Translations under genes and position numbers: made by a program
In this document: piece by piece, positions 45,615 to 63,062 of the stretch
Position numbering within the stretch: position 1 is the stretch's first letter
Layout: the number at the start of each line of letters is the position of its first letter
Notes under the pieces: generated by a model
Told to the model about the DNA's origin: nothing
The model's database searches: none
Seen by the model: only the letters and a program-made list of their open reading frames with translations
NCBI GenBank assembly: GCA_965205215.1
Contig: OZ242041.1
Span: 1,056,001 to 1,120,000 of the forward strand
Source: Nitrosopumilus sp.
GTDB lineage: Archaea > Thermoproteota > Nitrososphaeria > Nitrososphaerales > Nitrosopumilaceae
Length of the DNA: 64,000 nt
Direction: 5' to 3'

Positions 45615-46673
45615 TCAGGGCCGCGGTGCGCTGAGCATCTCTTCTTTCCGCTCTCCTGCACGCGCCGCATCCGCCGCATCCGGCCTGAACTCGTGCTCTA
45701 CAAAGTACTCTACGCGCGTCTTTTTGAACTCCCTTGAGCTGAACAGTATGGTGTACTCGTCGACCCCTACCTGGCCCTGTATCTGCCGCGCCATGTCGCG
45801 CGCCTCGGACTCTGTCTTGCAGTGTATCATGGAAAACACGTTGTAGGGCCAGTCCTTGTAGGTGGGCCTCTCATAGCAGTGGCTGACCTGCGGAAACGCG
45901 CCCAGCTTTGCGCCGACCTCTTCTATGCGCCCTTCTGGAACCTTCCACACGATCATGCCGTTTGCGGAGAACCCCGCCTGCCTGTGCCTGAGTATTGCCG
46001 CAAACCTCCTCATAACGCCAATCTCCTCGTACCATCTCATCTTCTCGAACAGCTCGTCCTCCGTCACGCCCAAGTTTTCCGCGGCTCTGGCAAACGGCTC
46101 GTCGATTATCTCCATGTCCTTTTGAAGCTCCCTGACAAACTCCTTGTCGCGCTCAGTAGGCTCAAATTCGACGCTTCTGATCTCCTTCTTTTTCTCGGTG
46201 GGGGCGACCTCGTGCTTTTTGTCGTCCACCATGTCGAGCTTTACGCCGATCTTGAAGAGCTGCAGGGTGGGCAGCATCCTGACCCTGCGGATGCCGTCGA
46301 GGCCCGCAAACTTGTCAAGCTCGTCCTTGAGGCTCGAGCCGGGGGGGACTGCCAGCGTAAACCACAGGTTGAACTCGTGGTCCCGCTCGTAGTTGTGGCT
46401 CACGCCCGGGTGGCGGTTTATCTGCCGCGCCACATGCTCGAGGCGCCCGGGCTCTATGTCCATGGCCACAAGCGAGCTTGTGTATCCGAGCCGTCGGGTG
46501 TCGAATATGGCGCTCAGCTGCCTCAGTACGCCGGACTTTTTGAGGCCGGTGAGCCTGTCCTTTATGGCGTCAGGAGTGACGCCAAACTTTTCTGCCATGG
46601 CGTCAAACGGGCGGCTCACAAGCGGGAACGTCCACTGGATCTCGTTTAGCAGCTCCATGTCAAGGCTGTCCAT
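45615..46673 (-). CDS. Fused siroheme decarboxylase AhbA/AhbB (NirDL-like, Lrp/AsnC fold)
   Basis: Two AsnC-like halves: 'GVSHNYER.HEFNLWFT' and 'VSHCYERPTYKDWPYNVFSMIH'. Confidence 0.9.
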   Translation of the reverse strand: MDSLDMELLNEIQWTFPLVSRPFDAMAEKFGVTPDAIKDRLTGLKKSGVLRQLSAIFDTRRLGYTSSLVAMDIEPGRLEHVARQINRHPGVSHNYERDHEFNLWFTLAVPPGSSLKDELDKFAGLDGIRRVRMLPTLQLFKIGVKLDMVDDKKHEVAPTEKKKEIRSVEFEPTERDKEFVRELQKDMEIIDEPFARAAENLGVTEDELFEKMRWYEEIGVMRRFAAILRHRQAGFSANGMIVWKVPEGRIEEVGAKLGAFPQVSHCYERPTYKDWPYNVFSMIHCKTESEARDMARQIQGQVGVDEYTILFSSREFKKTRVEYFVEHEFRPDAADAARAGERKEEMLSAPRP

Positions 46674-46879
46674 CGCGTCTCCTGCCAACGGGCGCCGTTG
46701 CATGATATTGATTAAAAATGTAGTTATGACGCATGCCCTGCCTACACGCGGACGGCTGTGTCCGCACGCGTACAGGCACCGGACGGCAGACGCGGCGCAG
46801 TGCGCATGCCGGCGGCGCACTAGCCGTGCCGGCACGCCGTCCGGCTGTAAATAAATAACTCTGGCGCACCACCATACGC

Positions 46880-47539
46880 GTGATAATAGATCTTGACATG
46901 ACGGACAGGACGGTGGTGGTGATAGGAGGCGGGGCCCAGGCAGAGCGGCGGGTCAACGCGCTCTTGCAGGAGGGCTGCCGCCGCATCGTGGTGCTGTCGG
47001 CCTCCGCGTCAGGCGCGATCAGGAAATGGTCCGCGGACGGCGCCGTCACCCTGGAGGAGCGCGACGTGGAGGACAGCTCGTTTCTTGACCGGCACGGGCC
47101 GTCAGTCGTGGTCGCCGCAACGGATGATCCAAAGGTCAACGGCATGGCGGTCTCCGCTGCCCGCTCGAGGGGCATCCTCGGATACCGGTCCGATGACTCT
47201 GCCCTGAGCGACTTTTCCCACCCGTCGGTCATGCGGGTTGAGGGGGGGATAACCGTCGCAGTGTCCACGGGGGGCCGGAGCCCCGCCGTCTCAAAGCAGA
47301 TATGTCAGAAGGCCGAGTCCGTACTCCGCGGCGTGATCACCCCCCGCGAGGTGGCGCACATGCGCATACAGGACGCGGTGCGGCGCGCCGCCAAGACTGC
47401 CATAAAGACGCAGGCCGAGCGCAGACGCCTGCTGGAGGCCGTGATGGCCGACGGGACAGTTGATCGGTTAATAAGAGACGGGCGGTTTGGTGAGGCCGAA
47501 GAGCGCGCCATGTCCATGCTGCGGGGTGACAAAACATGA
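46880..47539 (+). CDS. Precorrin-2 dehydrogenase (SirC/CysG N-terminal-like)
   Basis: 'VVIGGG..AERR', 'VAATDD..VN', 'DFSHP', 'AVSTGGRSP'. Confidence 0.92.
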   Translation: MIIDLDMTDRTVVVIGGGAQAERRVNALLQEGCRRIVVLSASASGAIRKWSADGAVTLEERDVEDSSFLDRHGPSVVVAATDDPKVNGMAVSAARSRGILGYRSDDSALSDFSHPSVMRVEGGITVAVSTGGRSPAVSKQICQKAESVLRGVITPREVAHMRIQDAVRRAAKTAIKTQAERRRLLEAVMADGTVDRLIRDGRFGEAEERAMSMLRGDKT

Positions 47540-48930
47540 GGCAAAGGATCATCAACGCGCGCGTCACGTTCCACAACTCGCCCATACACGTTCTTGAGCG
47601 GTTCGCCATACGGGACGTGGACGACGCGTACGAGCAGTTCCGGCGGCACTCTGGTCTGGACGAGTGCGTGATAATACAGACGTGCAACAGGGTGGAGCTC
47701 TTTGCGCGTACGGGCCCCGGGGGAACCGAGCGGCTGAAGCGGACGTGGGCCTCCCTTACGGGGCTCGACGAGGTTGCGTTTGATGAGAACCTCGAGATGT
47801 CCGAGGACGACGAGGCGCTGCGCCACCTCCTCAAGCTCACGTCGGGACTGGACTCGATGGTGCTCGGGGAGGAGCAGATACTGGGCCAGATAAAGAGCTC
47901 CATTGCCGAGGCGCGCAAGACGCGCTCGTCGGGCCGCTACCTGAACACGATATTTGACAAGGCGATACGGATCGGCACCCGGATACGCGGCAGCACGGGG
48001 ATCGGCAGGGGGGGCGTATCCGTCGGCTCCATGGCCGTCCGGCTTGCCGAGGAGAACATCGACGACATGAAGTCAAAGAGGATACTGCTTATCGGAACGG
48101 GCGAGGTCTCGACCCTCGTTGCAAAGTCGCTCCTGCGCAGGGGGTACGCGTTTGACGTCACGAGCAGGACCCTGGGCCGCGCAAGGGCGTTCTGCGAGTC
48201 GCTGGGGGGCTCCCCGGTGCGCTTTGAGGAGGTCCTGTCCAAGTTTACCGGGTACGACGCGATGTTCGTCGCCACCACCGCCCCGTACTCTCTTGTGACG
48301 TTTGAGAAGATATCGCAGGCGGTCTCGGCCGGGCGTGCCGGCGGTAACAGCGGTCACGGCGGCGGCTGCAGTGGCGAACCGGACGGCGGCCACCGCCGCG
48401 GCATGATGATCCTCGACCTCTCAAACCCGCGCACGGTCGACGAGCGGGTCGCGACGCTGCCCGGCGTCAAGCTGATGAACCTGGACCAGATATCTGAGAT
48501 GGTGGAAAAGAACCTGACGGCCAGGGCCGGCAAGGCCAGGGCCATCGAGGATGCAATAAAGGAGGAGGTCGGCGTACTGGAGGCGTCTGTGAGGCGCCTT
48601 GCAGCGGAGCCCATAGCCGAGCACGTGTTCAAGAAGATCGACGCCCTGCGGGAGAAGGAACTCGAAAAGGCGGTACGCGCGCTCGACGAGACAGATGCTA
48701 GGCGCATAGGTATAATCGACAGCCTGACGCGCGAGATAGTGGAGAGCATCGTATCACCCCCGATCAACAACCTGCGCAAGGCCTCCGAGCGCGGCGACTC
48801 TGGCGTGATTGCGCTTGCAGGCAGGCTGTTTGACTATGGGGATGACAGTGACGGTGCGGCCGATGCCGGCGCCGCCCCTTCGGCCGGCGCCCACGCTCCC
48901 GCCCCAGAAGACCCCGCCCCGAAAAACTGA
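47536..48930 (+). CDS. hemA: Glutamyl-tRNA reductase
   Basis: 'QTCNRVE', 'SGLDSMVLGEEQILGQ', 'IGTGE', 'DLSNPR'. Confidence 0.96.
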   Translation: MRQRIINARVTFHNSPIHVLERFAIRDVDDAYEQFRRHSGLDECVIIQTCNRVELFARTGPGGTERLKRTWASLTGLDEVAFDENLEMSEDDEALRHLLKLTSGLDSMVLGEEQILGQIKSSIAEARKTRSSGRYLNTIFDKAIRIGTRIRGSTGIGRGGVSVGSMAVRLAEENIDDMKSKRILLIGTGEVSTLVAKSLLRRGYAFDVTSRTLGRARAFCESLGGSPVRFEEVLSKFTGYDAMFVATTAPYSLVTFEKISQAVSAGRAGGNSGHGGGCSGEPDGGHRRGMMILDLSNPRTVDERVATLPGVKLMNLDQISEMVEKNLTARAGKARAIEDAIKEEVGVLEASVRRLAAEPIAEHVFKKIDALREKELEKAVRALDETDARRIGIIDSLTREIVESIVSPPINNLRKASERGDSGVIALAGRLFDYGDDSDGAADAGAAPSAGAHAPAPEDPAPKN

Positions 48931-49151
48931 CGCGGATGCTTCCGATGCGCGCGGCACGAACCCCCATAGTAGAATCCTGCCGCACCCGGCAGCCCCAAAG
49001 GCAGACGGCGCACAAATGTGATCATGCGCTTGCGGCATGGGCGCGGCCTGCCCGCCGTCCCGCATGACATGCGGGAGCCGTCAAGGCATGCCCTCTCACC
49101 ACCCTCGATTCTCACTAGGATTATATCTTGTCGATCATACCATAATACATA

Positions 49152-50165
49152 ATGCAGTTTCCCACACGGCGGTTGCGCAGGTTGCGAAAAACCGCAAAGA
49201 TGCGCAGCCTGGTCAGGGAGACCACGCTCCTGCCGTCTGACCTGGTATGCCCCGTGTTCGTCCAGGAGGGAATTAACGAGCGTGTAACGGTGAAATCGAT
49301 GCCCGGCATGCAGCGCCTGCCGCTGTCGGACGTAACCGGGGAGGTCGAGTCAATCAAAAGCGCCGGCATCCCCGCCATCATGCTGTTTGGACTCCCCTCG
49401 TCAAAGGACGATGCAGGAAGCTCCGCGTTTGACAGGGACGGAATCGTGCAGCGGGCCGCCTCTGAGGTGCGCCAGGCCTTTGGAGACGACATCGTGATAA
49501 TGTCCGACGTCTGCCTGTGCCAGTATACACTGTCTGGACACTGCGGCGTCATACGTGACGGCCACGGCAGAGGTGGGGGAGGAGGCAGCAGCCCCGTCAT
49601 AGACAACGATTCGAGCCTGGAGGTGCTTGCCAAGATCGCCGTCAGCCAGGCGGAATCCGGCGCCGACGTCGTCGCGCCATCGGCAATGATGGACGGGCAG
49701 GTGTCTGCAATCCGGACGGCCCTTGACGACTCGGGGTTCTCCGACGTGCTGGTCATGTCGCACTCTGCAAAGCACCGCTCCGGATTCTACTCGCCGTTCC
49801 GTGACGCGGCCGAGTGCGCCCCGCAGTTTGGCGACAGGTCGACGTACCAGATGCCATACACCAACGCCCGCGAGGCCATGATGGAGGTAGAGGCCGACGT
49901 GGAGGAGGGCGCGGACATTGTAATGATCAAGCCCGCCCTTGCGTACCTCGACTTGGTGGCCGAGGCGCGCAGGCGCCTTGATCTGCCGGTCGCCGCATAC
50001 AGCACCTCCGGCGAGTACGCGCTTGTCCGGGCGGCGGCCGCCGCCGGATACGTGGACGGTACTCAGATTGCCCTCGAGATGCTCACTTCCATAAAGAGGG
50101 CGGGCGCCGACATAATAGTCACATACTTTGCAAAGGACGTGGCAGGATCGCTTCTGGCAGAATGA
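49152..50165 (+). CDS. hemB: Porphobilinogen synthase
   Basis: 'DVCLCQYT..GHCG', 'APSAMMDGQV', 'FYSPFRDAA', 'MIKPAL.YLD'. Confidence 0.97.
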   Translation: MQFPTRRLRRLRKTAKMRSLVRETTLLPSDLVCPVFVQEGINERVTVKSMPGMQRLPLSDVTGEVESIKSAGIPAIMLFGLPSSKDDAGSSAFDRDGIVQRAASEVRQAFGDDIVIMSDVCLCQYTLSGHCGVIRDGHGRGGGGGSSPVIDNDSSLEVLAKIAVSQAESGADVVAPSAMMDGQVSAIRTALDDSGFSDVLVMSHSAKHRSGFYSPFRDAAECAPQFGDRSTYQMPYTNAREAMMEVEADVEEGADIVMIKPALAYLDLVAEARRRLDLPVAAYSTSGEYALVRAAAAAGYVDGTQIALEMLTSIKRAGADIIVTYFAKDVAGSLLAE

Positions 50166-51573: not shown

Positions 51574-51793
51574 CCACCCGTTCAGTTCTCATAAGATCGT
51601 TCAGCCCTTGCAAGCGTAATTATTGCAAGGCGCCTGCATAATATGCAGATGCATATTTTATTAAGGTTTTGAAAAATGGTTCCGTTGCTAATTCGTGTCT
51701 CCTTTCAAAAAACAATCAGGTTTCCATCCTTGCCGACGGAGGTCACAAATTCACAACGGAACCCCGACCCATAACTGTAAAATAGCATCCTCC

Positions 51794-52435: not shown

Positions 52436-52731
52436 GGGGAGAGCGCCCCTTGGACAGGGTGAGGCGGGGATCATTGATGGCAGGCGCGTCCTGACTGCCC
52501 GTCAGTGGATCCGAGTCCTCTATGATTTCCAGAGGTAGTTCGGGGGCGTCCCTGTCGTGCTTTGCATTGCTCATGCGCTTCTTACGTCTGCCTGCAATTT
52601 AAGAGTTTGAGAGTCGATGGCTAGAAGGATCGGAGAACACGCCATCTTGAACGCAAGCTAGGGAGCTAGTGGATACGATGACTCAAGCACAAATGGTAAC
52701 GTATAATCAGGACGGTTCGCGCGCAGCTAAC

Positions 52732-53070
52732 ATGTCAAGACGGCGGCACAAGACCGCCGGCTTTGCACAAGTGCTGGAGGGGCTGCGCAAGACGGCAGGC
52801 AGCAACGGCGCCACGAAGGGCAGACTGTTTGAGAGGCTGATCCAGTCGTTCCTGCAGGAGTATGACCTGTACCGCAGGAGGTTCCGCCAAGTGTGGCTGT
52901 GGGACGAGTACCCCGACAGGGACGGCAGGACGGACTTTGGCGTTGTTCTGGTGGCAGAGGAACACGACGGTATGAGGTGCGCCATACAGTGCAAGTTCTA
53001 TGCAAAAAAGACGCTAGCAAAGTCTGACATTGACAGCTTTTTGGAGGCCGCATCAAGAAGCGGGATCTAA
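52732..53070 (+). pseudogene. Truncated Mrr-like nuclease domain of a type ISP-like restriction-modification enzyme
   Basis: 'KGRLFE', 'VWLWDEYP', 'DFGVVLVAE' (usually GIDLVA), 'AIQCKFY', 'IDSFL'; no helicase/MTase follows; the stop codon lies inside the 28-bp repeat. Confidence 0.75.
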
Positions 53071-53089
53071 TGTGTACATGTAGGGAAAA
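53062..53089 (+). repeat. 28-bp direct repeat, copy 2
   Basis: GGGATCTAATGTGTACATGTAGGGAAAA. Confidence 0.85.
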
Positions 53090-53245
53090 TGTGGCATCTG
53101 ATCGCATGACGTCAAAATTTGAGGCGGCCGGCATCCTGATCGCTAAGGCTTAGTGGTGGCGGTAGTGCGACCATGTCGAGGTATCGAGTGGTACTGCTGC
53201 AAATTCGGTTGCTAGGCGTGTGTCGAGGGCGGACTGGGGCATCTG

Positions 53246-53440
53246 TCAGGGCTTCTGCTTGCGCAGGCGCCGCCACTCGTCGACAGCCTGTTTGGCCTTC
53301 TCCACGGGGCGCACGCCGCCGAACGAGTACGGCCCACATGCCATGTCCCTGCAGAGCTCGTCCTCCTGCGCGTTGATCGCCTTGCCGGTTCTGTACAGGT
53401 TGCCGAGCATCTCCATTATCTCGTATTGGCTCTGCGTCAT
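53246..53440 (-). CDS. Small hypothetical protein or gene fragment
   Basis: 64-aa ORF with protein-like composition; no motif. Confidence 0.35.
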   Translation of the reverse strand: MTQSQYEIMEMLGNLYRTGKAINAQEDELCRDMACGPYSFGGVRPVEKAKQAVDEWRRLRKQKP

Positions 53441-53712
53441 TGTTGCCCAACCACGCACCACTTGAACGCCGGCGTGCCCTCCGGTATGCCGGGCGGCATG
53501 GTCCGAGTTCCATCAAAGTCTGGGCTTCACGGCTGGGCAGGGGACCCTGCAGGCAGGATCGATACGGTGATCGCGCTGCTGGGCGCCCAGGCCGGGGGAT
53601 CGCGGGTTGCTACCCATTCTGCAGTCCCACGGCAGCCACCTACCCTTTGACGTATGGGTGGCGGCAGTGCCCATCTCCCGAACCCGCAACGGGACCAAAT
53701 TTTACACTATTT

Positions 53713-53888
53713 TGCCGGCATAAGGATCATTATACCGCATAGTTACAGGGTCACGTGCCGCAATACTTATTTAAGATTTCCAATGGCGGGATTTTCCCGC
53801 GCGTTATGCCGGCAAGTTTTCCGGCATAACGATCCAAATATTTGCAAAAATGCCGAAAACTTCCGGCATAATGATCCTTATACAGGCA
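53713..53888. other. Cluster of dif-like 11-6-11 sites; outer pair inverted, enclosing a TATA-like box
   Basis: TGCCGGCATAA-GGATCA-TTATACCGCAT (53713-53740) and TTCCGGCATAA-TGATCC-TTATACAGGCA (53861-53888); extra arms at 53804-53814 and 53819-53829. Confidence 0.6.
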
Positions 53889-54072
53889 ATATACGGCGCA
53901 CAAGGGGCCCTGACGGGGGGAGGGCGCCCTATGCACCTCGGATCTCGCACTGTGGGACGCCCGGGTTCCCGACGATCGCCCCTTCGGGGGCCGTAGGCGT
54001 CGCGCCCGCGGTGGACGTGGATGCCGCCGGGAACGCCAGTCGGCACGCCCGGCTCCTCAGCGGCGGCCTCCG

Positions 54073-54094
54073 CCCCCCCCGGGGGGGGGGGGGG
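54073..54094 (+). repeat. Homopolymer tract C8G14
   Basis: Read directly from the sequence. Confidence 0.9.
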
Positions 54095-54130
54095 TGGCGT
54101 CCGGCCCCTGGAGCGGTAGGTGCGCCTGAT

Positions 54131-54742
<612 letters not shown>

Positions 54743-54743
54743 T

Positions 54744-57700
54744 GTGAGGCTCCGCACGGCAGCAGCCTGCCTGGCATGCGTCCTTGCCGCCGCGGCCGTT
54801 GCGTGGGGGGTCCCGCCCGGTACCCTCGCAGAGCCCGCCTTTGCGCAGCCGGGAGAGCTGACCATCATCCGGCCGGTGGGCCACATCTCCGACAACAGCA
54901 CCCTCCTGCTTGACCGTTCCTACGACATCGCCGCCTTCGAGCACGGCGGCCATGCGTACGCCGCGGTCACCGCGTTCCGCGACCACGGCCTCCAGATAGT
55001 CAGCCTCGCAGACCCCCACAGCCCGCGGGCGGCGGGCCAGCTTAACGACACGGAATCCACCCTGCTTAAAACACCCTTCGCCGTCGCCGCCTTCGAGCAC
55101 GGCGGCCACGCGTACGCCGCGGTCATCTCGTCCCCGTCTTCAGGCGAGCGCGGCCTCCAGGTAATCAGCCTCGCAGACCCCGACAACCCGCGGGCGGCGG
55201 GCCGGCTCAACGACACCGGGGACACCCTGCTCCGCGACGCCCTGGACATGGCCACCTTTGAGCACAACGGCGCCACGTACGCGGCAGTCGCCTCGTTTGG
55301 CGAGCACGGCGTCCAGATTGTGGACCTGTCGGACCCCGCAGACCCGCGGGCGGCGGGCCGGATCGGCGACGACGACGGCGCCCTCGAGCTCAGGGGCGCC
55401 ACGGCCATTGCCACATTCGAGCACAACGGCGCCACGTACGCGGCCGTCGCCTCGCAGGACGACGACGGCGTCCAGATAATCAACATGTCAAACCCCGCAG
55501 ACCCGCGGGCGGCGGGCCGGATCGGCGACGGCGACGGCGGAGCCTATCTCAGCGGCGCCGCCGGCATCGCCACGTTCGGGCACGGCAACCGCACGTACGC
55601 GGCCGTCACCGCGGCCGACGACGCCGCCGTCCAGCTGATAGATTTGTCGGATCCGCAGAACCCGCGGGCGGCGGGCAGCATAATCGACGGGGACTTTGGG
55701 GACTCGGAGGAGCACCACGTCCTTCTTGAGGGCGCCGCGGCCATCGCCACCTTCGAGGCCGGCGGCCATACGTACGCGGCAGTCACCTCGACCGCCGAGC
55801 CCGGCGTCCAGTTCGTCGACCTGTCCGACCCCGCAGACCCGCGGGCGGCGGGCCGCATACGGGACACCGGCTCCACCCTGCTCTTCGGCGCCATCAGCAT
55901 CGCCGTCTTCGAGGCCGGGACCGCCACGTACGCGGCCTTCGCCTCGGCCGAGGAAGACGGCGTCCAGGTGATCCTGCTTGACGGCGGCAACCGCACCTAC
56001 GCCGACGCCGGGCCCGACCTGGAGGCGTCCGCTGGCGGCACGGTCGCGCTCGACGGCTCCGGCTCGACGGGCCGCGATATAGACTACTCCTGGGAGCAGA
56101 CCGGGGGCACCCCGGCCGTCCCGCTTGCGGGCGCCGGCACGCCGTCACCCTCCTTTGAGGCGCCCGGCGAGTCCGCCGTCCTCAGGTTCACCCTCACCGT
56201 CACGGACGGGGCGAACCGGACGGACACGGACACCGTCACAGTGAGGGTGCACGCGGCCACGCGGGCGGACGCCGGACCCGACCTGTACGTGGAGCCCGGC
56301 GCCACGGTCGCGCTCGACGGCTCGAACTCGGCGGGCCGCGGCATCGACTACTCCTGGGAGCAGACCGCGGGCACCCCGGCCGTACCGCTCTCGGGCGCCG
56401 CCACGCCGTCACCCTCCTTTGAGGCGCCCGGCGCGGCGGCCACCCTCGAGTTCACCCTCACCGTCACGGACGCGTCATCCCAAAGCGACACGGACGCCGT
56501 CACCGTCTTCGTCCGCACGCCACAGGGCCAGGCCTTTGGGCCGGCGGGCCACTACGTCACTTTCGATGACGACGGCGACCCGATCCGCGTCGCCGACCTC
56601 GCCGTCTTTGAGGTGTCAGGCAGCCCCTACGCCGTGGCCGCCATACCACTTGGTAGTTCCCTCCAGATAGTCGACCTCTCCAACCCCGCAAGCCCGCGGG
56701 CGGCGGGCCAGATACGGGACACCGGCTCCACCCTGCTTGGCGCCGCCGCAGCCGTCGCCACCTTCGAGGCCGGGTCGGGCGCCGCCACCCGGCCCTACGC
56801 CGTGGCATCCTCGTCTGCCGATAGAGGCCTCCAGATAGTCGACCTCTCCAACCCCGCAAGCCCGCGGGCGGCGGGCCAGATACGGGACACCAACTCCACC
56901 CTGCTTGGCGGCCACCGTGCCATCGCCACCTTCGAGGTGTCGGGATCCCCCTTCGCCGTGGCATTATCGTCCTCCTCATCAGGGGAGCTAGGCCTCCAGA
57001 TAGTCAACCTCACAGACCCGCAGAAACCGCGGGCGGCAGGCCAGCTTTCAGCCGACGACAGCCTCATCCTGCAGACTAGACTAGACGACGTCACCACCTT
57101 CGAGCTGGACGGCGCCCCCTTCGCCGCGGTCACCTCGCTACGTACAGACGGCATGGTCCTGATGATCAACCTTACAGACCCCTACAGCCCGCGGATGGCG
57201 GGCCAGCTGCGCGACACGGGCTCCACCCTGCTTGAGGGCGCCACCGCCATCGCCGCCTTCGAGCACGGCGGCACCGTATACGCGGCCGCCGCCTCGTCCG
57301 ACGACGACGGCGTCCAGCTGATCAACATGTCAAACCCCGCAGACCCGCGGGCGGCGGGCCAGATACGGGACACCGGCTCCACAAGTCTTGGGGCTCCAGA
57401 AGACATCGCCATCTTCGAGCTGGACGGCGCCCCCTACGCCGCCGTCATCTCGAAAGACGAGCACGCCGTCCAGACAATCGACCTGTCCGACCCGCAGCGC
57501 CCCATACCGCTAGACCGCCTTGCCGACGACGGCTCCACCCTGCTTTTACTCCCCGAAAACATAGCCACCTTTACGGTCGATACCGCCACCTACGCCGCGG
57601 TCACCTCGGGTATAGAGGGCGGAGTCCAGATAGTCCGGCTTGACGCGGGCGGCAAGGGCATAGCCGTCGCGGGGCCCGACCAGACGGTCACATCAGGCCA

Positions 57701-60700
57701 GACGGTCACCCTCGACGGCACGGGCTCCGCCGGAGACGGCATAACCTACAACTGGAACCAGGTATCGGGCCCCGACTCAGGGGTCGATCGCCGCGGTTCC
57801 GCGCGAACCACCTTTGCCGCCCCGGAGGGCCCCGCGACCCTCGTGTTCGAGCTTACCGTATCTGGGAGGGGGCAGAATGTCGATGATGACGATATCGATC
57901 CTGAGCGGGTGGACACCGTCACGGTCACAGTCCTGGCGCCCGCCAAGGCCGACGCGGGGCCCGACCTGGACGTGCTCCCGGGCGACACGGTAACCCTCGA
58001 CGGCTCAAACTCGACGGGCGACGGCCTCACCTTTTCCTGGGAGCAGACGGGCGGCGGCGCAGACGTCGTCCTGAACCCTGTAAGGCTCGCGCCGGCGGGC
58101 GGCCTGCCGTCTGATGACCCCGACCACGCGGCCGCCCCAGCTGACCCGTCCGACATCGCCATCTACGCGCCGACGTCGGCGTCCGCCGCCGGCCGCACAC
58201 ACGCCGTGGTCCCCTCGTTCTCCGGCGACGCCGTCCACGTGATCGACCTGTCGGACCCCGCCGCGCCCGCAGCCACCGACTTGATCGACGCCAAGAGCGG
58301 CATCCTGCTCAACGGCGCCACGGACGTCGCCGTCTTCCACATAGACGGCCACCCCTACGCCGCCGTCGCCTCGTTCTTTGACAACGCCGTCCAGATACTC
58401 TACATCAGCGATCCCGACAGCATAACACACGGGGGCAACATACGAGACGGCACGTCCCTCAAGCTTGAGGGCGCCAGCGGCATCGCCACCTTCGAGGCCG
58501 GCGGCCTCCCCTACGCCGCCGTCGCCTCGTCCATAGACAACGGCGTCCAGCTGATAGACCTGACCAGTCCCGAGGGCCCAGCGGCGGAGGGCAGTATCGC
58601 CGACACGGGCTCCACCCTGCTTGAGGGCGCCACCGCCATCGCCACCTTCGAGCACGGCGGCCGTACGTACGCCGCCGTCGCCTCGTACATAGACAACGGC
58701 GTCCAGCTGATAGACGTGTCCGACCCCTCAAGACCGCGGGCGGCGGGCCATCTTGCCGACGGCGGCTCCACCCTGCTCGGCGGCGCCAGCGGCATCGCCA
58801 CCTTTGACATATCGGGTACCGCATACGCCGCCGTCGCCTCGTACATAGACAACGGCGTCCAGCTGGTAGACGTGTCCGACCCCGGAAACCCGCGGGCGGC
58901 GGGCCGGCTCGCCGACAACGGCACCCTCCTGCTCGACGGCGCCAGCGACATAGCCGTCTTCGAGGCCGGCGGCCGCACCTACGCCGCCGTCGCCTCGTCC
59001 GAGGACGACGGCGTCCAGATGATCGACCTTACGGACCCCCAGAACCCGAGGCCGGTGCGCGGCCTTCCCAACGCGGGGTCACTCCTGCTTGACGTCGCGA
59101 GAAACATAGCGGTCTTCGGCGCGGGGACGGGCACCTACGCGGCCGTCGCCTCGCCGGACGGCGTCCAGATCATCGACGTCCTGGATTTTGCCGCCCCCTA
59201 CTTCACCGCCCCCGCCACCCCGGGCACCCTGAACTTTACGCTCACCGTGACGGATCCGCTGTCCCAGACGGACGAGGACGCGGTGACCGTAACGGTATTC
59301 GAGCCCCCGCGGGCCGACGCCGGCACGGACAGGCTGGTCGCCCCGGGTGACACCGTCGCGCTGGACGGCTCGAACTCCACGGGGGGCGGCCGCCTCTCCT
59401 TTTCGTGGGAGCAGACCGGCGGCGGCTCGGACGTCGACCTGGACCTTGAGACCCTCCTTGCGGCGGGCCGCGTACCGGACGGCCGCACCCTCGAGCTTGA
59501 CGGCGCCCGCGCCGTCGACATATTCAGGGCCGGGTCGGGCGGTGACGCCCGCACGTACGCCGCCGTCGCCTCGTTCAACGACGACGGCGTCCAGCTCCTA
59601 GACATTACGGACCCCGCAGACCCGCGGCCGGCCGGCCGCGTACCGGACGGCGCCTCCACCCAGCTCAACGGCGCCCGCGGCATAACAGCCTTCGAGCGCG
59701 GCGGCCACACGTACGCGGCAGTCACCTCGCTGTATAGCGACGGCCTCCAGATAGTCAACATGTCCGACCCCGACGACCCGCGGGGTGTGGGCCGCCTCCG
59801 AGACACGGGCGCCACCCTGCTTGACGACCCCTACGGCGTCGCCACATTCGAGCGCGGCGGCCGCACGTACGCCGCGGTCGCCTCCCAGTTCGCAGACGGC
59901 GTCCAGATAGTCGATTTGTCCGACCCCTCAAGACCGCGGGCGGCGGGCCAGATAGAAGACGACGCCTCCACCCTGCTCGACGGCGCCAGCGGCATCGCCG
60001 CCTTCGAGCGCGGCGGCCGCACGTACGCGGCCGTCACCTCGTTGCATAATGCCGGCCTCCAGCTGATAGACGTGTCCGATCCCTCAGACCCGCGGGCGGC
60101 GGGCCAGATACGGGACAACAGCACCCTCCTGCTCGCCGGCGCGTACGGCATCGCTACCTTCGACATATCGGGCACCACCTACGCCGCCGCCGCCTCGTTC
60201 TCTGACAACGGCGTCCAGCTCATAGACGTGTCGGATCCCTCAGACCCGCGGGCGGCGGGCCACATACGGGACGGCGGCACCCTAGAGCTCAGGGGCGCCC
60301 AGGACATCACCGTCTTCGAGCACGGCGGCCGCACGTACGCGGCCGTCGCCTCGTTCCACGACGACGGCGTCCAGCTCATAGACGTGTCAGACCCCGCAGA
60401 CCCGCGGGCGGCGGGCCGGATAAAGGACGCCGGCCCCACCCTGCTTGACGGCGCCGCCGGCATCGCCGCCTTCGAGCACGGCGGCACCGTATACGCGGCC
60501 GTCGCCTCGGAACGCGACGACGGCGTCCAGCTGGTTCCGCTCTTCTCCCCGGCCGCCGCCCATTTCACCGCCCCGGAGCCAGGGCCGGAGGTCCTCGAGT
60601 TTACGCTTACCGTCACCGACTCGGTATCACAGGAGGACGCCGACACGGTGGCCATAACAGTCCAGGCCCCCCCGACGGCCGACGCCGGCGCCGACCGGCT

Positions 60701-63062
60701 GGCGGGCCCGGGCCAGACGGTGGTCTTGGACGCGTCCGGCTCGGAGGGCACCGGCATCACCCACTCGTGGGAGCAGACGGGGGGCGAAGCCGGCGTGACG
60801 CTGGGTTTGGGCCCCCCCGAGCCGGCGGGCCGGCTCGCCGGTCTGGGCCCCCACACGATCGACGGCGCGTACGAGGCCGCCCTCTTCGAGCATAACGGCG
60901 CCACGTACGCCGCCGCCACCGCGTCGTACGGCGACGCAGTCTGGATCGCCGACCTCTCCGACCCCGACAGCCCGCGGGCCGCCGGCCTCCTGGCAGACAA
61001 CAGCACACTCCTGCTTGACAACGCCCGCGGCATCGCCGCCTTCGAGCACAACGGTACAACGTACGCCGCCGTCGCCTCACGCACAGACCACGGCGTCCAG
61101 CTGATAGACCTCTCAAACCCCTCAGACCCGCGGGCGGCGGGCCGTATCGCCGACAACGGCACCCTCCTGCTCTACGGCGCGTTTGACATCGCCCTCTTCG
61201 AGCATAACGGCGACACCTACGCCGCCGTCGCCTCACGCGTAGACTACGGCGTCCAGCTGATAGACCTCTCCGACCCCTACCATCCGCGGGCGGCGGGCCA
61301 CATACGCGACACGGACTCCACACTGCTCCGCGGCGCGTGGGGCATCGCCACCTTCCACATATCGGGCGCCCCCTACGCCGCCGTCACCTCAGAATTTGAC
61401 CACGGCGTCCAGCTGATAGACCTCTCCGACCCCGACAGCCCGCGGACGGCGGGCCGGATAGGGGACAACGGCACCCTCCTGCTCCACGGCGCGTTTGATG
61501 TAGCCCCCTTCGAGCACGGCGGCGCCACGTACGCCGCGGTCACCACGTTCAACGAAGGCGGCGTCCAGCTGATAGACCTCTCCGACCCCGACAGCCCGCG
61601 GGCGGCGGGCCAGATACGGGACAGCGGCTCCACCCTGCTTGACACACCCAACGGCATCGCCGTCTTCGGGCATGGCGGCCGCACCTACGCCGCGGTGGCC
61701 GAATTTGACGGCCACGGCGTCCAGCTGATAGACCTCTCCGACCCCGACAACCCGCGGGCGGCGGGCCAGATACGGGACAGCGGCTCCACCCTGCTCCGCG
61801 GCGCCCAGGGCGTCGCCACATTCGAGTCCGGCGGCGCCACGCACCTCGTCGTCACCGGGTTTCATGACGATGCCGTCCAGCTCCTCCGCATCCCGGGCAC
61901 GGCGTTCACCGCCCCGGGCTCCCCCGGCCCCCTCGAGTTTACGCTCACCGTGACGGACTCGCAGAACCAGACGGACACCGACACGGTGACAGTGACGGTC
62001 CCGCACCCGCCGACGGCCGACGCCGGGGGGGACCGGACGGCCGCCCCGGGCCAGACGGTCACGCTGGACGGCTCGAAATCCGCGGGGACGGGCCTCGCCT
62101 ACTCATGGAACCAGACGGGGGGCGCCCCGGTGGCCCTGGAGACCGTCCGCCCCCGGACGGCGGGCGGCCTGCAGGGCGGCGACTTTTCGGCGAGATTCGG
62201 CAACAGCTACGTCGACACCTTCGAGGCGTCCGGCTCCACGTACGGCGCGGTCGCCTCGGCCTTCGGCGAGGGCGTCCAGCTGATAGACCTGTCCGACCCG
62301 CACAACCTGACGGCCGCGGGCCGCCTGATGGACGGGGACGCCCCCGCCGGCGAGCTCCTGCTTACAGGGACGTACGGCCTGGACGTGTTCGAGGCCCGCG
62401 CCCCGGGCGCCGCCGCTAAAACCTACGCGGCCGTCGCCTCGGAGCGCGAGGACGGCGTCCAGCTCATCGATTTGTCCGACCCCGACAACCCGAGGGCGGC
62501 GGGCCGGATCGGGGACAACAGCACGCTCGAGCTCGACGGCGCCCGCAGCGTCGCCGCCTTTTACATATCGGGCGCGGCGTACGTCGCCGTCGCCTCGCCT
62601 AACGACGACGGCCTCCAGCTCATAGACATGTCGGATCCCGGTAGCCCGCGGGCGGCGGGCCGGATCGCGGACACCGAGCCTGACGGCGCGGCCGTCCCCC
62701 CCATAACGGTCAACAACGAGCTCCTGCTTGACGGCGCCAGCGGCGTCGCCGTCTTCGAGGCAGGCGGCCGCACCTACGCCGCGGTCGCCTCGTTCCACGA
62801 CGACGGCGTCCAGCTGGTAGACGTGTCGGACCCCGCAAACCCGCGGCCGGCGGGCCGCATCGGGGACACCGAGCCTGACGGCGCGGCCGTCCCCCCCATA
62901 ACGGCAGAAAGCGAGCTCCTGCTCAACGGCGCCTACGGCATCGACGTCTTCGGGGCGGGGTCCGGGGTATACGCGGCCGTCGCCTCGCAATTAGACCACG
63001 GCGTCCAGCTCATAGACGTGTCGGACCCCTCAGAACCCGAGGGCCGCCGGCATGATATCTGA
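54744..63062 (+). CDS. Giant secreted surface protein: LVIVD-like beta-propeller blocks plus PKD/Ig-like domains (N-terminal part, frameshifted near 63030)
   Basis: Signal peptide 'AEPAFAQ'; ~45-aa repeats 'FEHGG.TYAAVAS..D.GVQLIDLSDP..PRAAG.I.D...LL.GA..IA'; PKD 'ADAGPD..V..G.TV.LDGS.S.G....SWEQT.G'. Confidence 0.88.
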   Translation: MRLRTAAACLACVLAAAAVAWGVPPGTLAEPAFAQPGELTIIRPVGHISDNSTLLLDRSYDIAAFEHGGHAYAAVTAFRDHGLQIVSLADPHSPRAAGQLNDTESTLLKTPFAVAAFEHGGHAYAAVISSPSSGERGLQVISLADPDNPRAAGRLNDTGDTLLRDALDMATFEHNGATYAAVASFGEHGVQIVDLSDPADPRAAGRIGDDDGALELRGATAIATFEHNGATYAAVASQDDDGVQIINMSNPADPRAAGRIGDGDGGAYLSGAAGIATFGHGNRTYAAVTAADDAAVQLIDLSDPQNPRAAGSIIDGDFGDSEEHHVLLEGAAAIATFEAGGHTYAAVTSTAEPGVQFVDLSDPADPRAAGRIRDTGSTLLFGAISIAVFEAGTATYAAFASAEEDGVQVILLDGGNRTYADAGPDLEASAGGTVALDGSGSTGRDIDYSWEQTGGTPAVPLAGAGTPSPSFEAPGESAVLRFTLTVTDGANRTDTDTVTVRVHAATRADAGPDLYVEPGATVALDGSNSAGRGIDYSWEQTAGTPAVPLSGAATPSPSFEAPGAAATLEFTLTVTDASSQSDTDAVTVFVRTPQGQAFGPAGHYVTFDDDGDPIRVADLAVFEVSGSPYAVAAIPLGSSLQIVDLSNPASPRAAGQIRDTGSTLLGAAAAVATFEAGSGAATRPYAVASSSADRGLQIVDLSNPASPRAAGQIRDTNSTLLGGHRAIATFEVSGSPFAVALSSSSSGELGLQIVNLTDPQKPRAAGQLSADDSLILQTRLDDVTTFELDGAPFAAVTSLRTDGMVLMINLTDPYSPRMAGQLRDTGSTLLEGATAIAAFEHGGTVYAAAASSDDDGVQLINMSNPADPRAAGQIRDTGSTSLGAPEDIAIFELDGAPYAAVISKDEHAVQTIDLSDPQRPIPLDRLADDGSTLLLLPENIATFTVDTATYAAVTSGIEGGVQIVRLDAGGKGIAVAGPDQTVTSGQTVTLDGTGSAGDGITYNWNQVSGPDSGVDRRGSARTTFAAPEGPATLVFELTVSGRGQNVDDDDIDPERVDTVTVTVLAPAKADAGPDLDVLPGDTVTLDGSNSTGDGLTFSWEQTGGGADVVLNPVRLAPAGGLPSDDPDHAAAPADPSDIAIYAPTSASAAGRTHAVVPSFSGDAVHVIDLSDPAAPAATDLIDAKSGILLNGATDVAVFHIDGHPYAAVASFFDNAVQILYISDPDSITHGGNIRDGTSLKLEGASGIATFEAGGLPYAAVASSIDNGVQLIDLTSPEGPAAEGSIADTGSTLLEGATAIATFEHGGRTYAAVASYIDNGVQLIDVSDPSRPRAAGHLADGGSTLLGGASGIATFDISGTAYAAVASYIDNGVQLVDVSDPGNPRAAGRLADNGTLLLDGASDIAVFEAGGRTYAAVASSEDDGVQMIDLTDPQNPRPVRGLPNAGSLLLDVARNIAVFGAGTGTYAAVASPDGVQIIDVLDFAAPYFTAPATPGTLNFTLTVTDPLSQTDEDAVTVTVFEPPRADAGTDRLVAPGDTVALDGSNSTGGGRLSFSWEQTGGGSDVDLDLETLLAAGRVPDGRTLELDGARAVDIFRAGSGGDARTYAAVASFNDDGVQLLDITDPADPRPAGRVPDGASTQLNGARGITAFERGGHTYAAVTSLYSDGLQIVNMSDPDDPRGVGRLRDTGATLLDDPYGVATFERGGRTYAAVASQFADGVQIVDLSDPSRPRAAGQIEDDASTLLDGASGIAAFERGGRTYAAVTSLHNAGLQLIDVSDPSDPRAAGQIRDNSTLLLAGAYGIATFDISGTTYAAAASFSDNGVQLIDVSDPSDPRAAGHIRDGGTLELRGAQDITVFEHGGRTYAAVASFHDDGVQLIDVSDPADPRAAGRIKDAGPTLLDGAAGIAAFEHGGTVYAAVASERDDGVQLVPLFSPAAAHFTAPEPGPEVLEFTLTVTDSVSQEDADTVAITVQAPPTADAGADRLAGPGQTVVLDASGSEGTGITHSWEQTGGEAGVTLGLGPPEPAGRLAGLGPHTIDGAYEAALFEHNGATYAAATASYGDAVWIADLSDPDSPRAAGLLADNSTLLLDNARGIAAFEHNGTTYAAVASRTDHGVQLIDLSNPSDPRAAGRIADNGTLLLYGAFDIALFEHNGDTYAAVASRVDYGVQLIDLSDPYHPRAAGHIRDTDSTLLRGAWGIATFHISGAPYAAVTSEFDHGVQLIDLSDPDSPRTAGRIGDNGTLLLHGAFDVAPFEHGGATYAAVTTFNEGGVQLIDLSDPDSPRAAGQIRDSGSTLLDTPNGIAVFGHGGRTYAAVAEFDGHGVQLIDLSDPDNPRAAGQIRDSGSTLLRGAQGVATFESGGATHLVVTGFHDDAVQLLRIPGTAFTAPGSPGPLEFTLTVTDSQNQTDTDTVTVTVPHPPTADAGGDRTAAPGQTVTLDGSKSAGTGLAYSWNQTGGAPVALETVRPRTAGGLQGGDFSARFGNSYVDTFEASGSTYGAVASAFGEGVQLIDLSDPHNLTAAGRLMDGDAPAGELLLTGTYGLDVFEARAPGAAAKTYAAVASEREDGVQLIDLSDPDNPRAAGRIGDNSTLELDGARSVAAFYISGAAYVAVASPNDDGLQLIDMSDPGSPRAAGRIADTEPDGAAVPPITVNNELLLDGASGVAVFEAGGRTYAAVASFHDDGVQLVDVSDPANPRPAGRIGDTEPDGAAVPPITAESELLLNGAYGIDVFGAGSGVYAAVASQLDHGVQLIDVSDPSEPEGRRHDI

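Follow-up and report, generated by a model that had tools for sequence, protein, structure and literature searches.

What is the role of a short, AT-rich segment that is bracketed by inverted palindromes and lies upstream of a giant surface-protein gene in an archaeon? The segment belongs to a 186-bp module at positions 53708-53893 of a 64,000-nucleotide stretch (the window) of the genome of Nitrosopumilus sp. (assembly GCA_965205215.1, contig OZ242041.1, positions 1,056,001 to 1,120,000 of the forward strand); positions given below are those of the window unless marked as genome positions. A preliminary description of this DNA had proposed that two inverted, dif-like recombination sites enclose a promoter, and that a XerA-like enzyme encoded elsewhere flips it to switch the downstream surface locus. 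Our analysis leads us to favor, tentatively and at somewhat less than an even chance, a recombinase-driven invertible promoter that is common to three surface genes.

The inverted-repeat structure on which this proposal is built is real and far beyond chance. A repeat search delimited a left arm (53708-53737) and a right arm (53864-53893) of 30 nucleotides (nt) each, matched at 26 of 30 positions (87% complementary) and separated by 126 nt, so that inverted repeats bound a short segment as they do in an inverton. In 100 windows simulated with a first-order Markov model, no inverted pair reached 26 matches and the highest count was 19; only 12 AT-rich inverted pairs were found across the entire 2.1-Mb genome. 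The G+C content of 53700-53895 is 44%, making it an island inside DNA of 64-78% G+C. The left arm holds site A, TGCCGGCATAA-GGATCA-TTATACCGCAT (53713-53740, spacer 53724-53729), and the right arm holds site B, TTCCGGCATAA-TGATCC-TTATACAGGCA (53861-53888, spacer 53872-53877), with the centers of the two spacers 148 bp apart. Each arm is itself a palindrome, of 9-6-9 to 11-6-11 form, and the spacers are reverse complements of one another. Both sites display the two ~11-bp arms and the 6-bp spacer of a dif-type site, the 11-6-11 geometry outlined for Xer/dif sites in PMC2958812, and this geometry together with the reverse-complementary spacers fits the core site of a tyrosine recombinase, as had been proposed.

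The strings that the preliminary description gave for A, B, a third direct copy, the promoter box and a GC-rich hairpin all lie where it had placed them. What it overlooked is the arrangement of the half-sites, seven of which are organized as four dyads. The half-site CCGGCATAA occurs five times in the window against 0.49 expected, with four of the five occurrences falling within 53715-53871; when degenerate copies are included, CCGG(C/T)ATAA is present seven times, in dyads at 53715-53738, 53802-53831, 53850-53869 and 53863-53885. In the dyads of A and B the half-sites face each other head-to-head across a 6-bp spacer, whereas the other two dyads are tail-to-tail. Dyad 2, CGTTATGCCGGCAA-GT-TTTCCGGCATAACG (53802-53831), has 14-nt arms that are 93% complementary, and its right half forms part of the third direct copy, TTCCGGCATAA-CGATCC (53819-53835), which is located 42 bp before B. 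Dyad 3, ATGCCGAAA-AC-TTCCGGCAT (53850-53869), is degenerate and overlaps site B. The hairpin, GCGGGA-TTT-TCCCGC, occupies 53786-53800.

The host genome is a single contig of 2.098 Mb with 60% G+C and two genes for TATA-binding protein, which mark it as archaeal: among the control genomes, only the four from archaea gave a match to this protein. BLAST with 52501-55500, together with a DNA search, showed that the module is present in three copies that agree in both strand and internal orientation. Copy A (genome 981694-982034) is 88% identical to the window copy and copy C (genome ~1227530-1228117) is 79-91% identical to it; the three are located at 0.98, 1.11 and 1.23 Mb, as direct repeats 128 kb and 118 kb apart. 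Homology with copy A begins ~16 nt to the left of site A and continues through a GC-rich leader (53894-54040, + strand), which is conserved in all three copies, into the gene start, and the copies differ very little across the right half of the module (53786-53890). A hairpin in the leader, GGCGCACAAGG...CCTTGTGCGCC, which copy A has in perfect form, is degraded in the window copy. Farther downstream, a C8G14 homopolymer tract (54073-54094) lies ~40 nt before an ATG at 54131. This tract may be a contingency element that varies by strand slippage, or a place where assembly tends to fail; a comparable G run is found at the same place in copy C.

The ATG at 54131 opens a 203-amino acid (aa) open reading frame (ORF; 54131-54742, + strand) with a signal peptide, MRRRLAQTLCLA...LAEPALAQA, that is homologous to the N-termini encoded behind copies A and C. 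This ORF contains poly-Asp and poly-Gly low-complexity sequence and LVIVD-like remnants, and it ends 52 nt past the start of the next gene in a different frame; it appears to be a remnant or decayed 5' gene fragment situated between the module and the gene. The gene that follows (54690-63062, + strand) encodes a 2790-aa surface protein with LVIVD repeats, PKD domains and its own similar signal peptide, so that the surface locus predicted downstream is indeed, by domains and signal peptide, one for a giant surface protein. The proteins encoded downstream of the three copies share a signal peptide of the form M(G)RRR..LCLA...LAEPALAQ and otherwise differ: that of the window copy has LVIVD and PKD domains, that of copy C has PKD, DUF285 and Ig-like domains, and that of copy A has 18 DUF285 repeats and a PKD domain. 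A genome scan for further sites near surface genes, using an 8-6-8 pattern with up to two mismatches, returned the three module loci and one other place, giving six sites at three loci, each of which lies upstream of a giant surface gene. Invertons characteristically control surface or contingency genes, and the LVIVD, PKD, DUF285 and Ig-like domains and signal peptides encoded here are of that kind. Judged from sequence, the 186-bp AT-rich module is probably a shared promoter cassette of three giant surface-protein genes.

Where does transcription of these genes begin? Using a position weight matrix for the B recognition element (BRE) and TATA box, trained on the upstream regions of 42 tRNA genes (consensus GCAA/GAAA followed by TTTAAAT), we located a BRE/TATA-like box at 53756-53785, around TTATTTAAG (53767-53775). 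The score is 11.3 for the + strand (53756-53773) and 14.1 for the - strand (53767-53784), relative to a genome background whose 99.99th percentile is 11.7, and the word TTATTTAAG occurs twice in the window (17520 and 53767) as compared with 0.05 expected. In each module this is the sole box scoring at least 8 from the left edge of the module to the start codon. The earlier statement that the sites enclose a TATA-like box can accordingly be sharpened, in that no other strong promoter-like box precedes the surface gene; because it lies between the sites, the surface-gene promoter is probably inside the bracketed segment. The position of the box predicts a + strand transcription start site (TSS) at ~53796, and possibly a divergent one near 53743.

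A candidate enzyme family is encoded in the same genome. Five paralogs of the tyrosine-recombinase type, ~485-550 aa in length, are present: R1 (genome 1223142-1224734, - strand), R2 (genome 1225330-1226787, - strand), R3 (genome 601720-603366, + strand), R4 (genome 1973859-1975469, + strand) and R5 (genome ~84424-86004, + strand). R1 and R2, which are 73-76% identical in alignment, form a tandem pair beside module copy C, and R2 is divergent from the copy C surface gene with the module between them. A recombinase in the genome, usually adjacent, is a further hallmark of invertons; R1/R2 occupy that position at copy C, and none is found beside the window copy. PF00589 is above cut-off in R2 and R4, and PF02899 is above cut-off in R2, with R4 below it (20.1 bits vs 22.3). 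An AlphaFold model of R2, built with 47 homologs, has a pLDDT (predicted local distance difference test) of 82. The structures that Foldseek ranks highest against it, with a probability of 1.00, are XerA (5hxy, E 2e-6; 4a8e), lambda Int, IntI, XerH and Cre; searches against solved structures gave a weak lambda-Int match with the single protein (E 0.19) and XerA with a profile (E 7e-4). The family is predicted to have the two-domain fold of tyrosine recombinases, with a SAM-like core-binding domain and a catalytic domain. Across 47 sequences, K289, H369 and R372 never vary and H395 and Y401 hardly ever do, and the HxxR and LGH motifs align to XerA; the candidate nucleophile is Y401 or Y408. Members are found in 33 of 121 genomes of the genus, and at least 170 homologs exist in public data, called tyrosine-type recombinase or integrase where they are named; the two closest, 77% and 66% identical, are encoded on one 15-kb contig. 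Each of the five paralogs has an ORF of at least 1000 aa within 2.5 kb, and flanks of this type make up only 11% of the genome.

These observations modify the proposal of a XerA-like enzyme encoded elsewhere: the predicted fold is XerA-like and paralogs do sit beside copy C, but no canonical XerA was detected in the genome, the best match to NF040815 scoring 33.3 bits against a cut-off of 220, which was exceeded in 4 of 14 control genomes. A viral origin of the recombinases was considered and rejected, no relative of the R1-R5 family being found in viral contigs. As a separate observation, clusters of a 42-nt palindrome, TACCCGGTAACAATCATAGAG|CTCTATGATTGTTACCGGGTA, occur at genome positions 625634-626195, 963592-963743 and 1127768-1128384, the last of them ~1.2 kb from an ORF (genome 1129569-1129991) that weakly resembles XerA over the N-terminal half of the latter; these clusters may represent a second site/recombinase system or origin-type repeats.

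A link between sites and recombinases is suggested by what precedes other members of the family. R4 is preceded by TTACAATGCCCATTGTAA / TTACAATGGGCATTGTAA, a pair inverted through a central CC/GG and spaced 148 bp from start to start, the same distance that separates the centers of A and B. The pair bounds a segment at genome 1973329-1973458, encloses TATA-like boxes and is unique in the genome. It is flanked on one side by R4 and on the other by a giant DUF285 gene, which closes a series of four giant ORFs that extend over ~38 kb on one strand. In another species of the genus (G002), a paralog that shares 56% identity with R4 has upstream of it the pair CATAATGGCTATTATG / CGTAATAGCCATTATG, also inverted; its members are 167 bp apart and the DNA between them is 36% GC. 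This pair is unique in that genome and lies between the recombinase gene and the start of a gene of >1000 aa, and a DNA search of 150 other genomes of the genus with the switch-like region gave no match. The spacings at the three loci are 148, 148 and 167 bp. The recurrence of one architecture with three unrelated site sequences beside different paralogs constitutes the strongest evidence that the palindromes are cognate sites of the neighboring recombinases, and the earlier suggestion of a recombinase link gains from the two additional pairs. By DNA comparison the interior of the module is not similar to that of the R4 pair, the best local scores being 19 and 22 against a shuffle maximum of 28. 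Looser scans of 30 and 20 loci flagged L059, L065, L076 and L079, of which only L079 was judged a clear analogue, and other inverted pairs in the genome (647040 and 752825) were inspected and found to be unlike the module. The run of giant ORFs that ends at the R4 pair (genome 1934860-1973342) comprises reading frames of 3155, 3401, 3585 and 1996 aa, measured from stop to stop, and one 148-bp segment may stand ahead of these ~38 kb of surface-protein genes.

Considering these features together, we propose that a lineage-specific tyrosine recombinase most likely uses the outer 11-6-11 palindromes as its core sites, and that R1/R2 (genome 1223142-1226787), encoded beside copy C, would act in trans on the window copy. 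Since the cores are inverted and their 6-bp spacers match, recombination between A and B would flip the ~148-bp segment that carries the BRE/TATA box, while the inner CCGGCATAA dyads could serve as accessory binding sites. Provided that the recombinase not only binds but also inverts the segment, each flip would change the identity and position of the promoter that drives transcription into the GC-rich leader and surface gene, and could result in phase variation of the surface coat.

The proposal of an invertible promoter switch draws on the geometry of the sites, the enclosed box, the surface gene and the recombinase neighbors, and a number of observations weigh against it. All three genomic copies have the same orientation (3/3). 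A second orientation was looked for in contigs from 2 runs of 1 study, in which both junctions were bridged in the reference orientation only; where the arms end inward, the contigs had neither a strand-change joint nor a loose end, and breaks occurred at paralogous repeats. As contigs drop minor variants, this result speaks only against a large inverted fraction, and it is compatible with a small one or with switching in other conditions. The box scores on both strands in all three copies (+ strand, 11.3 to 13.1; - strand, 11.3 to 14.5), and this near symmetry means that a flip would be no plain on/off switch. B does match the reverse complement of A at 23 of 28 positions, as had been stated, but the direct match already reaches 21 of 28 and the GATC core of the spacer is palindromic; with each site itself a palindrome, the inverted relation rests on two outer spacer bases and a few arm positions. 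No recombinase lies near the window copy or copy A, and R1, R3 and R5 (3 of 5 paralogs) have no comparable inverted pair upstream. In other genomes, the kilobase upstream of the recombinase gene could be used at 48 loci, of which only two have an inverted pair with at least 15 matches; the chance expectation is 0.37, with a maximum of 2 in 30 simulations. With regard to the enzymes, an invariant Asp (GLD, D246) appears, as we read the alignment, to occupy the position of the first catalytic Arg, with an invariant Arg (R253) seven residues later, and the Pfam match begins only at profile position 57, so that catalytic competence is unproven. Comparative data add little on orientation. A DNA search returned the genome's own three copies of the module and none in 40 relatives (41 genomes including its own) or in five closer genomes, so that the module was seen in this genome only. 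The sites are not conserved in the 24 + 5 same-genus genomes searched at the DNA level; an exact core-site pattern matched nothing in genome or metagenome contigs; a two-site pattern matched 2 + 1 stretches, all of them unrelated tandem repeats or coding repeats; and a single-site pattern was found in 8 of 120 other genomes of the genus, always inside coding sequence.

Several of these points would also be expected of a static promoter with an operator array, an alternative that the preliminary description had already named and a serious rival to inversion, though one that we consider on the unlikely side. Here the seven half-sites in four dyads would bind a dedicated regulator, perhaps the recombinase-like neighbor acting as a mere binder, and repression or activation of a fixed promoter, without rearrangement, might involve looping between A and B over 148 bp, or ~14 helical turns. 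The half-site is present in both polarities with spacings of 6, 8 and ~4 nt, dyad 2 lies at ~+5 to +35 relative to the predicted + strand TSS, a typical position for a repressor, and the + strand box (11.3 to 13.1) already faces the gene. The single orientation of the copies and contigs, the near invariance of the right half of the module and the possible loss of the first catalytic Arg are also in keeping with a static element. Set against this, no transcription-factor gene is a recurring neighbor of the site pairs, the recombinase family being the only one; the three unrelated site sequences are inverted through an asymmetric center, which a symmetric dimeric regulator would have no need for; and one fixed dimer geometry cannot fit both head-to-head and tail-to-tail dyads. 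It is also conceivable, but improbable in our judgment, that the sites are used for a different kind of recombination, in which 5' cassettes are exchanged, deleted or captured among surface genes on a shufflon- or integron-like platform next to the recombinase genes. The shared unit of module, leader and signal peptide on three otherwise different giant genes suggests that a 5' cassette has moved or been exchanged; consistent with this, homology with copy A starts ~16 nt to the left of site A, and in the window copy a 203-aa remnant with the shared signal peptide is followed by an intact gene. Duplication or gene conversion would explain the shared 5' ends equally well, however, and the motif is confined to the three modules, with no cassette array with 3' sites. 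Moreover, housekeeping genes for heme and purine synthesis lie between the copies, so that deletions would be lethal.

In E. coli, pap and agn43 are set in heritable on/off states by methylation. An analogous epigenetic switch, in which marks left by a Dam-class methyltransferase and sensed by a methylation-sensitive binder would fix heritable states, seems very improbable here. It is prompted by the GATC that is central in A, B and the third copy and accompanies every full CCGGCATAA-N-GATC site, and by three genes for D12-class (Dam-family) adenine methyltransferases (genome 152899-153645, 371735-372295 and 543902-544585; PF02086, E 3e-48 to 3e-30), yet GATC is neither depleted nor unusual genome-wide (9433 observed, 7519 expected), and the sites of R4 and G002 lack it. 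We give equally little credence to the idea that the palindromes function as hairpins of a structured 5' leader RNA, controlling stability or translation, and not as DNA sites. A start at ~53796 would place dyads 2-4 and the GC-rich leader in the transcript, 53802-53873 (dyads 2 and 3) folds as a long hairpin, and the fold of 53795-54135 has a z-score of -2.3, with 2 of 100 shuffles as good, which is modest; the same motif, however, makes up site A, upstream of the TATA box and outside the transcript, and the hairpin that follows the module is degraded in the window copy with no compensating changes. Lastly, the 11-6-11 geometry is dif-like (PMC2958812), and 30-nt terminal inverted repeats around a 126-nt AT-rich core could recall a miniature inverted-repeat transposable element (MITE). 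The preliminary description had itself named the chromosomal dif region with integration scars as an alternative, and together with a MITE origin we regard this as scarcely credible. Six sites at three loci are incompatible with a single-copy dif, and on this copy number and the absence of XerA the dif assignment was rejected; nor did the searches of related genomes show conservation of the sites. The cumulative GC-skew signal is weak: its extremes fall at 1.38 and 1.96 Mb, the module copies lie at 0.98, 1.11 and 1.23 Mb, and it is too noisy to place a terminus. A MITE was rejected as well: similarity among the copies extends into both flanks, and we see no target-site duplication, a pattern that fits segmental duplication and not transposition.

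If the promoter is invertible, which known systems does it resemble? The fim switch of E. coli consists of a 314-bp promoter segment, fimS, with inverted repeats, located beside a surface-structure gene and served by the tyrosine recombinases FimB and FimE, whose paralogous genes stand in tandem next to it. The module resembles it in its short segment with a promoter-like box, its inverted repeats, the neighboring surface gene and, at copy C, its tandem paralogous recombinases (R1/R2). It differs in belonging to an archaeon with BRE/TATA promoters, in its length (~148 bp vs 314 bp), in having 11-6-11 palindromes in place of 9-bp repeats, in comprising three unlinked copies presumably served in trans, and in its divergent recombinases of ~500 aa; of the two, only fim is known to invert. 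We regard as possible, if doubtful, a more specific proposition, namely that this is an archaeal counterpart of the fim switch. A family of ~500-aa proteins with a XerA-like fold, perhaps with a non-canonical active site (Asp for the first Arg), would flip ~148-bp segments, one tandem pair serving three unlinked cassettes in trans and causing adhesin-like coat proteins to phase-vary, and sister paralogs with private sites would control other giant-gene operons, including the ~38-kb run.

Vsp/vlp-type systems of Mycoplasma combine a conserved promoter, leader and signal peptide with divergent mature surface proteins, and vary through slipped-strand tracts or recombination within clustered loci. 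The conserved 5' region and divergent mature proteins are shared with the present genes, which in contrast lie 118-128 kb apart. The mpl genes of Mycoplasma penetrans have per-gene invertible promoters with inverted repeats (Horino et al. 2009, as cited in PMC3047005), served by a tyrosine recombinase encoded elsewhere in the genome. Here too, several surface genes each have their own short segment with a promoter-like box, and the candidate recombinase of the window copy is encoded elsewhere; the mpl repeats are 12 bp long and vary between ~30 genes, as compared with 30-nt, near-identical arms at three genes, and the domain of life, promoter type and recombinase family are different. The archaeal XerA/dif system, as portrayed in PMC2958812, has similar imperfect 11-6-11 palindromes, and the neighboring recombinases best match XerA structures; dif, however, is a conserved single-copy site acted on by a ~280-aa XerA, whereas the present sites number six at three loci, are specific to one genome, and are accompanied by ~500-aa enzymes with a long N-terminal extension. 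Precedents for inversion in Archaea come from other settings. The Int1 system of phiCh1 reportedly inverts coding segments of viral tail fibers and not a chromosomal promoter. A PhaVa survey lists 12 putative, read-supported archaeal inverton calls from 42 data sets, without characterized recombinases in the portion that reports them (PMC10028968), and with phiCh1 it provides evidence of site-specific inversion and phase variation in Archaea.

The text available of one review (PMC8371274) describes no chromosomal promoter inversion in Archaea, and the broad read-based survey (PMC10028968) refers, in the part that addresses them, to archaeal invertons as "minimally investigated"; to the extent that these two sources reflect the literature, the phenomenon is essentially uncharacterized. 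Should inversion occur, the module would offer a defined and testable system for surface-coat phase variation in Archaea, in which sites, candidate enzymes and target genes are all known, and one recombinase pair would be acting on three unlinked loci. A function would also be assigned to a widespread, nameless family of long tyrosine recombinases. If the segment does not flip, it would still be a compact and unusually well-defined regulatory cassette for three different giant surface genes, useful for work on archaeal promoters and regulators.

The DNA to the left of the module has features of its own. The variable region is immediately preceded by genes of the alternative heme pathway and of tetrapyrrole synthesis (45615-50165), which encode a siroheme decarboxylase-like NirDL/AhbAB fusion, glutamyl-tRNA reductase and aminolevulinate (ALA) dehydratase. 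A 133-aa ORF (52669-53070) matches only the first half of the restriction endonuclease domain Mrr_cat_2 (profile positions 5-73 of 127) and is probably a truncated defense gene. The stretch from 51.2 to 53.1 kb has a G+C content of 40-55%, below that of the surrounding DNA, and contains a 20-nt inverted repeat, GGTTCCGTTGCTAATTCGTG...CACAAATTCACAACGGAACC (51678-51697 and 51744-51763), matched at 17 of 20 positions with 46 nt between its arms. Similar pairs recur at genome positions 687894, 975184, 1982410 and 973159 and make up a small family of hairpin-like repeats in low-GC DNA.

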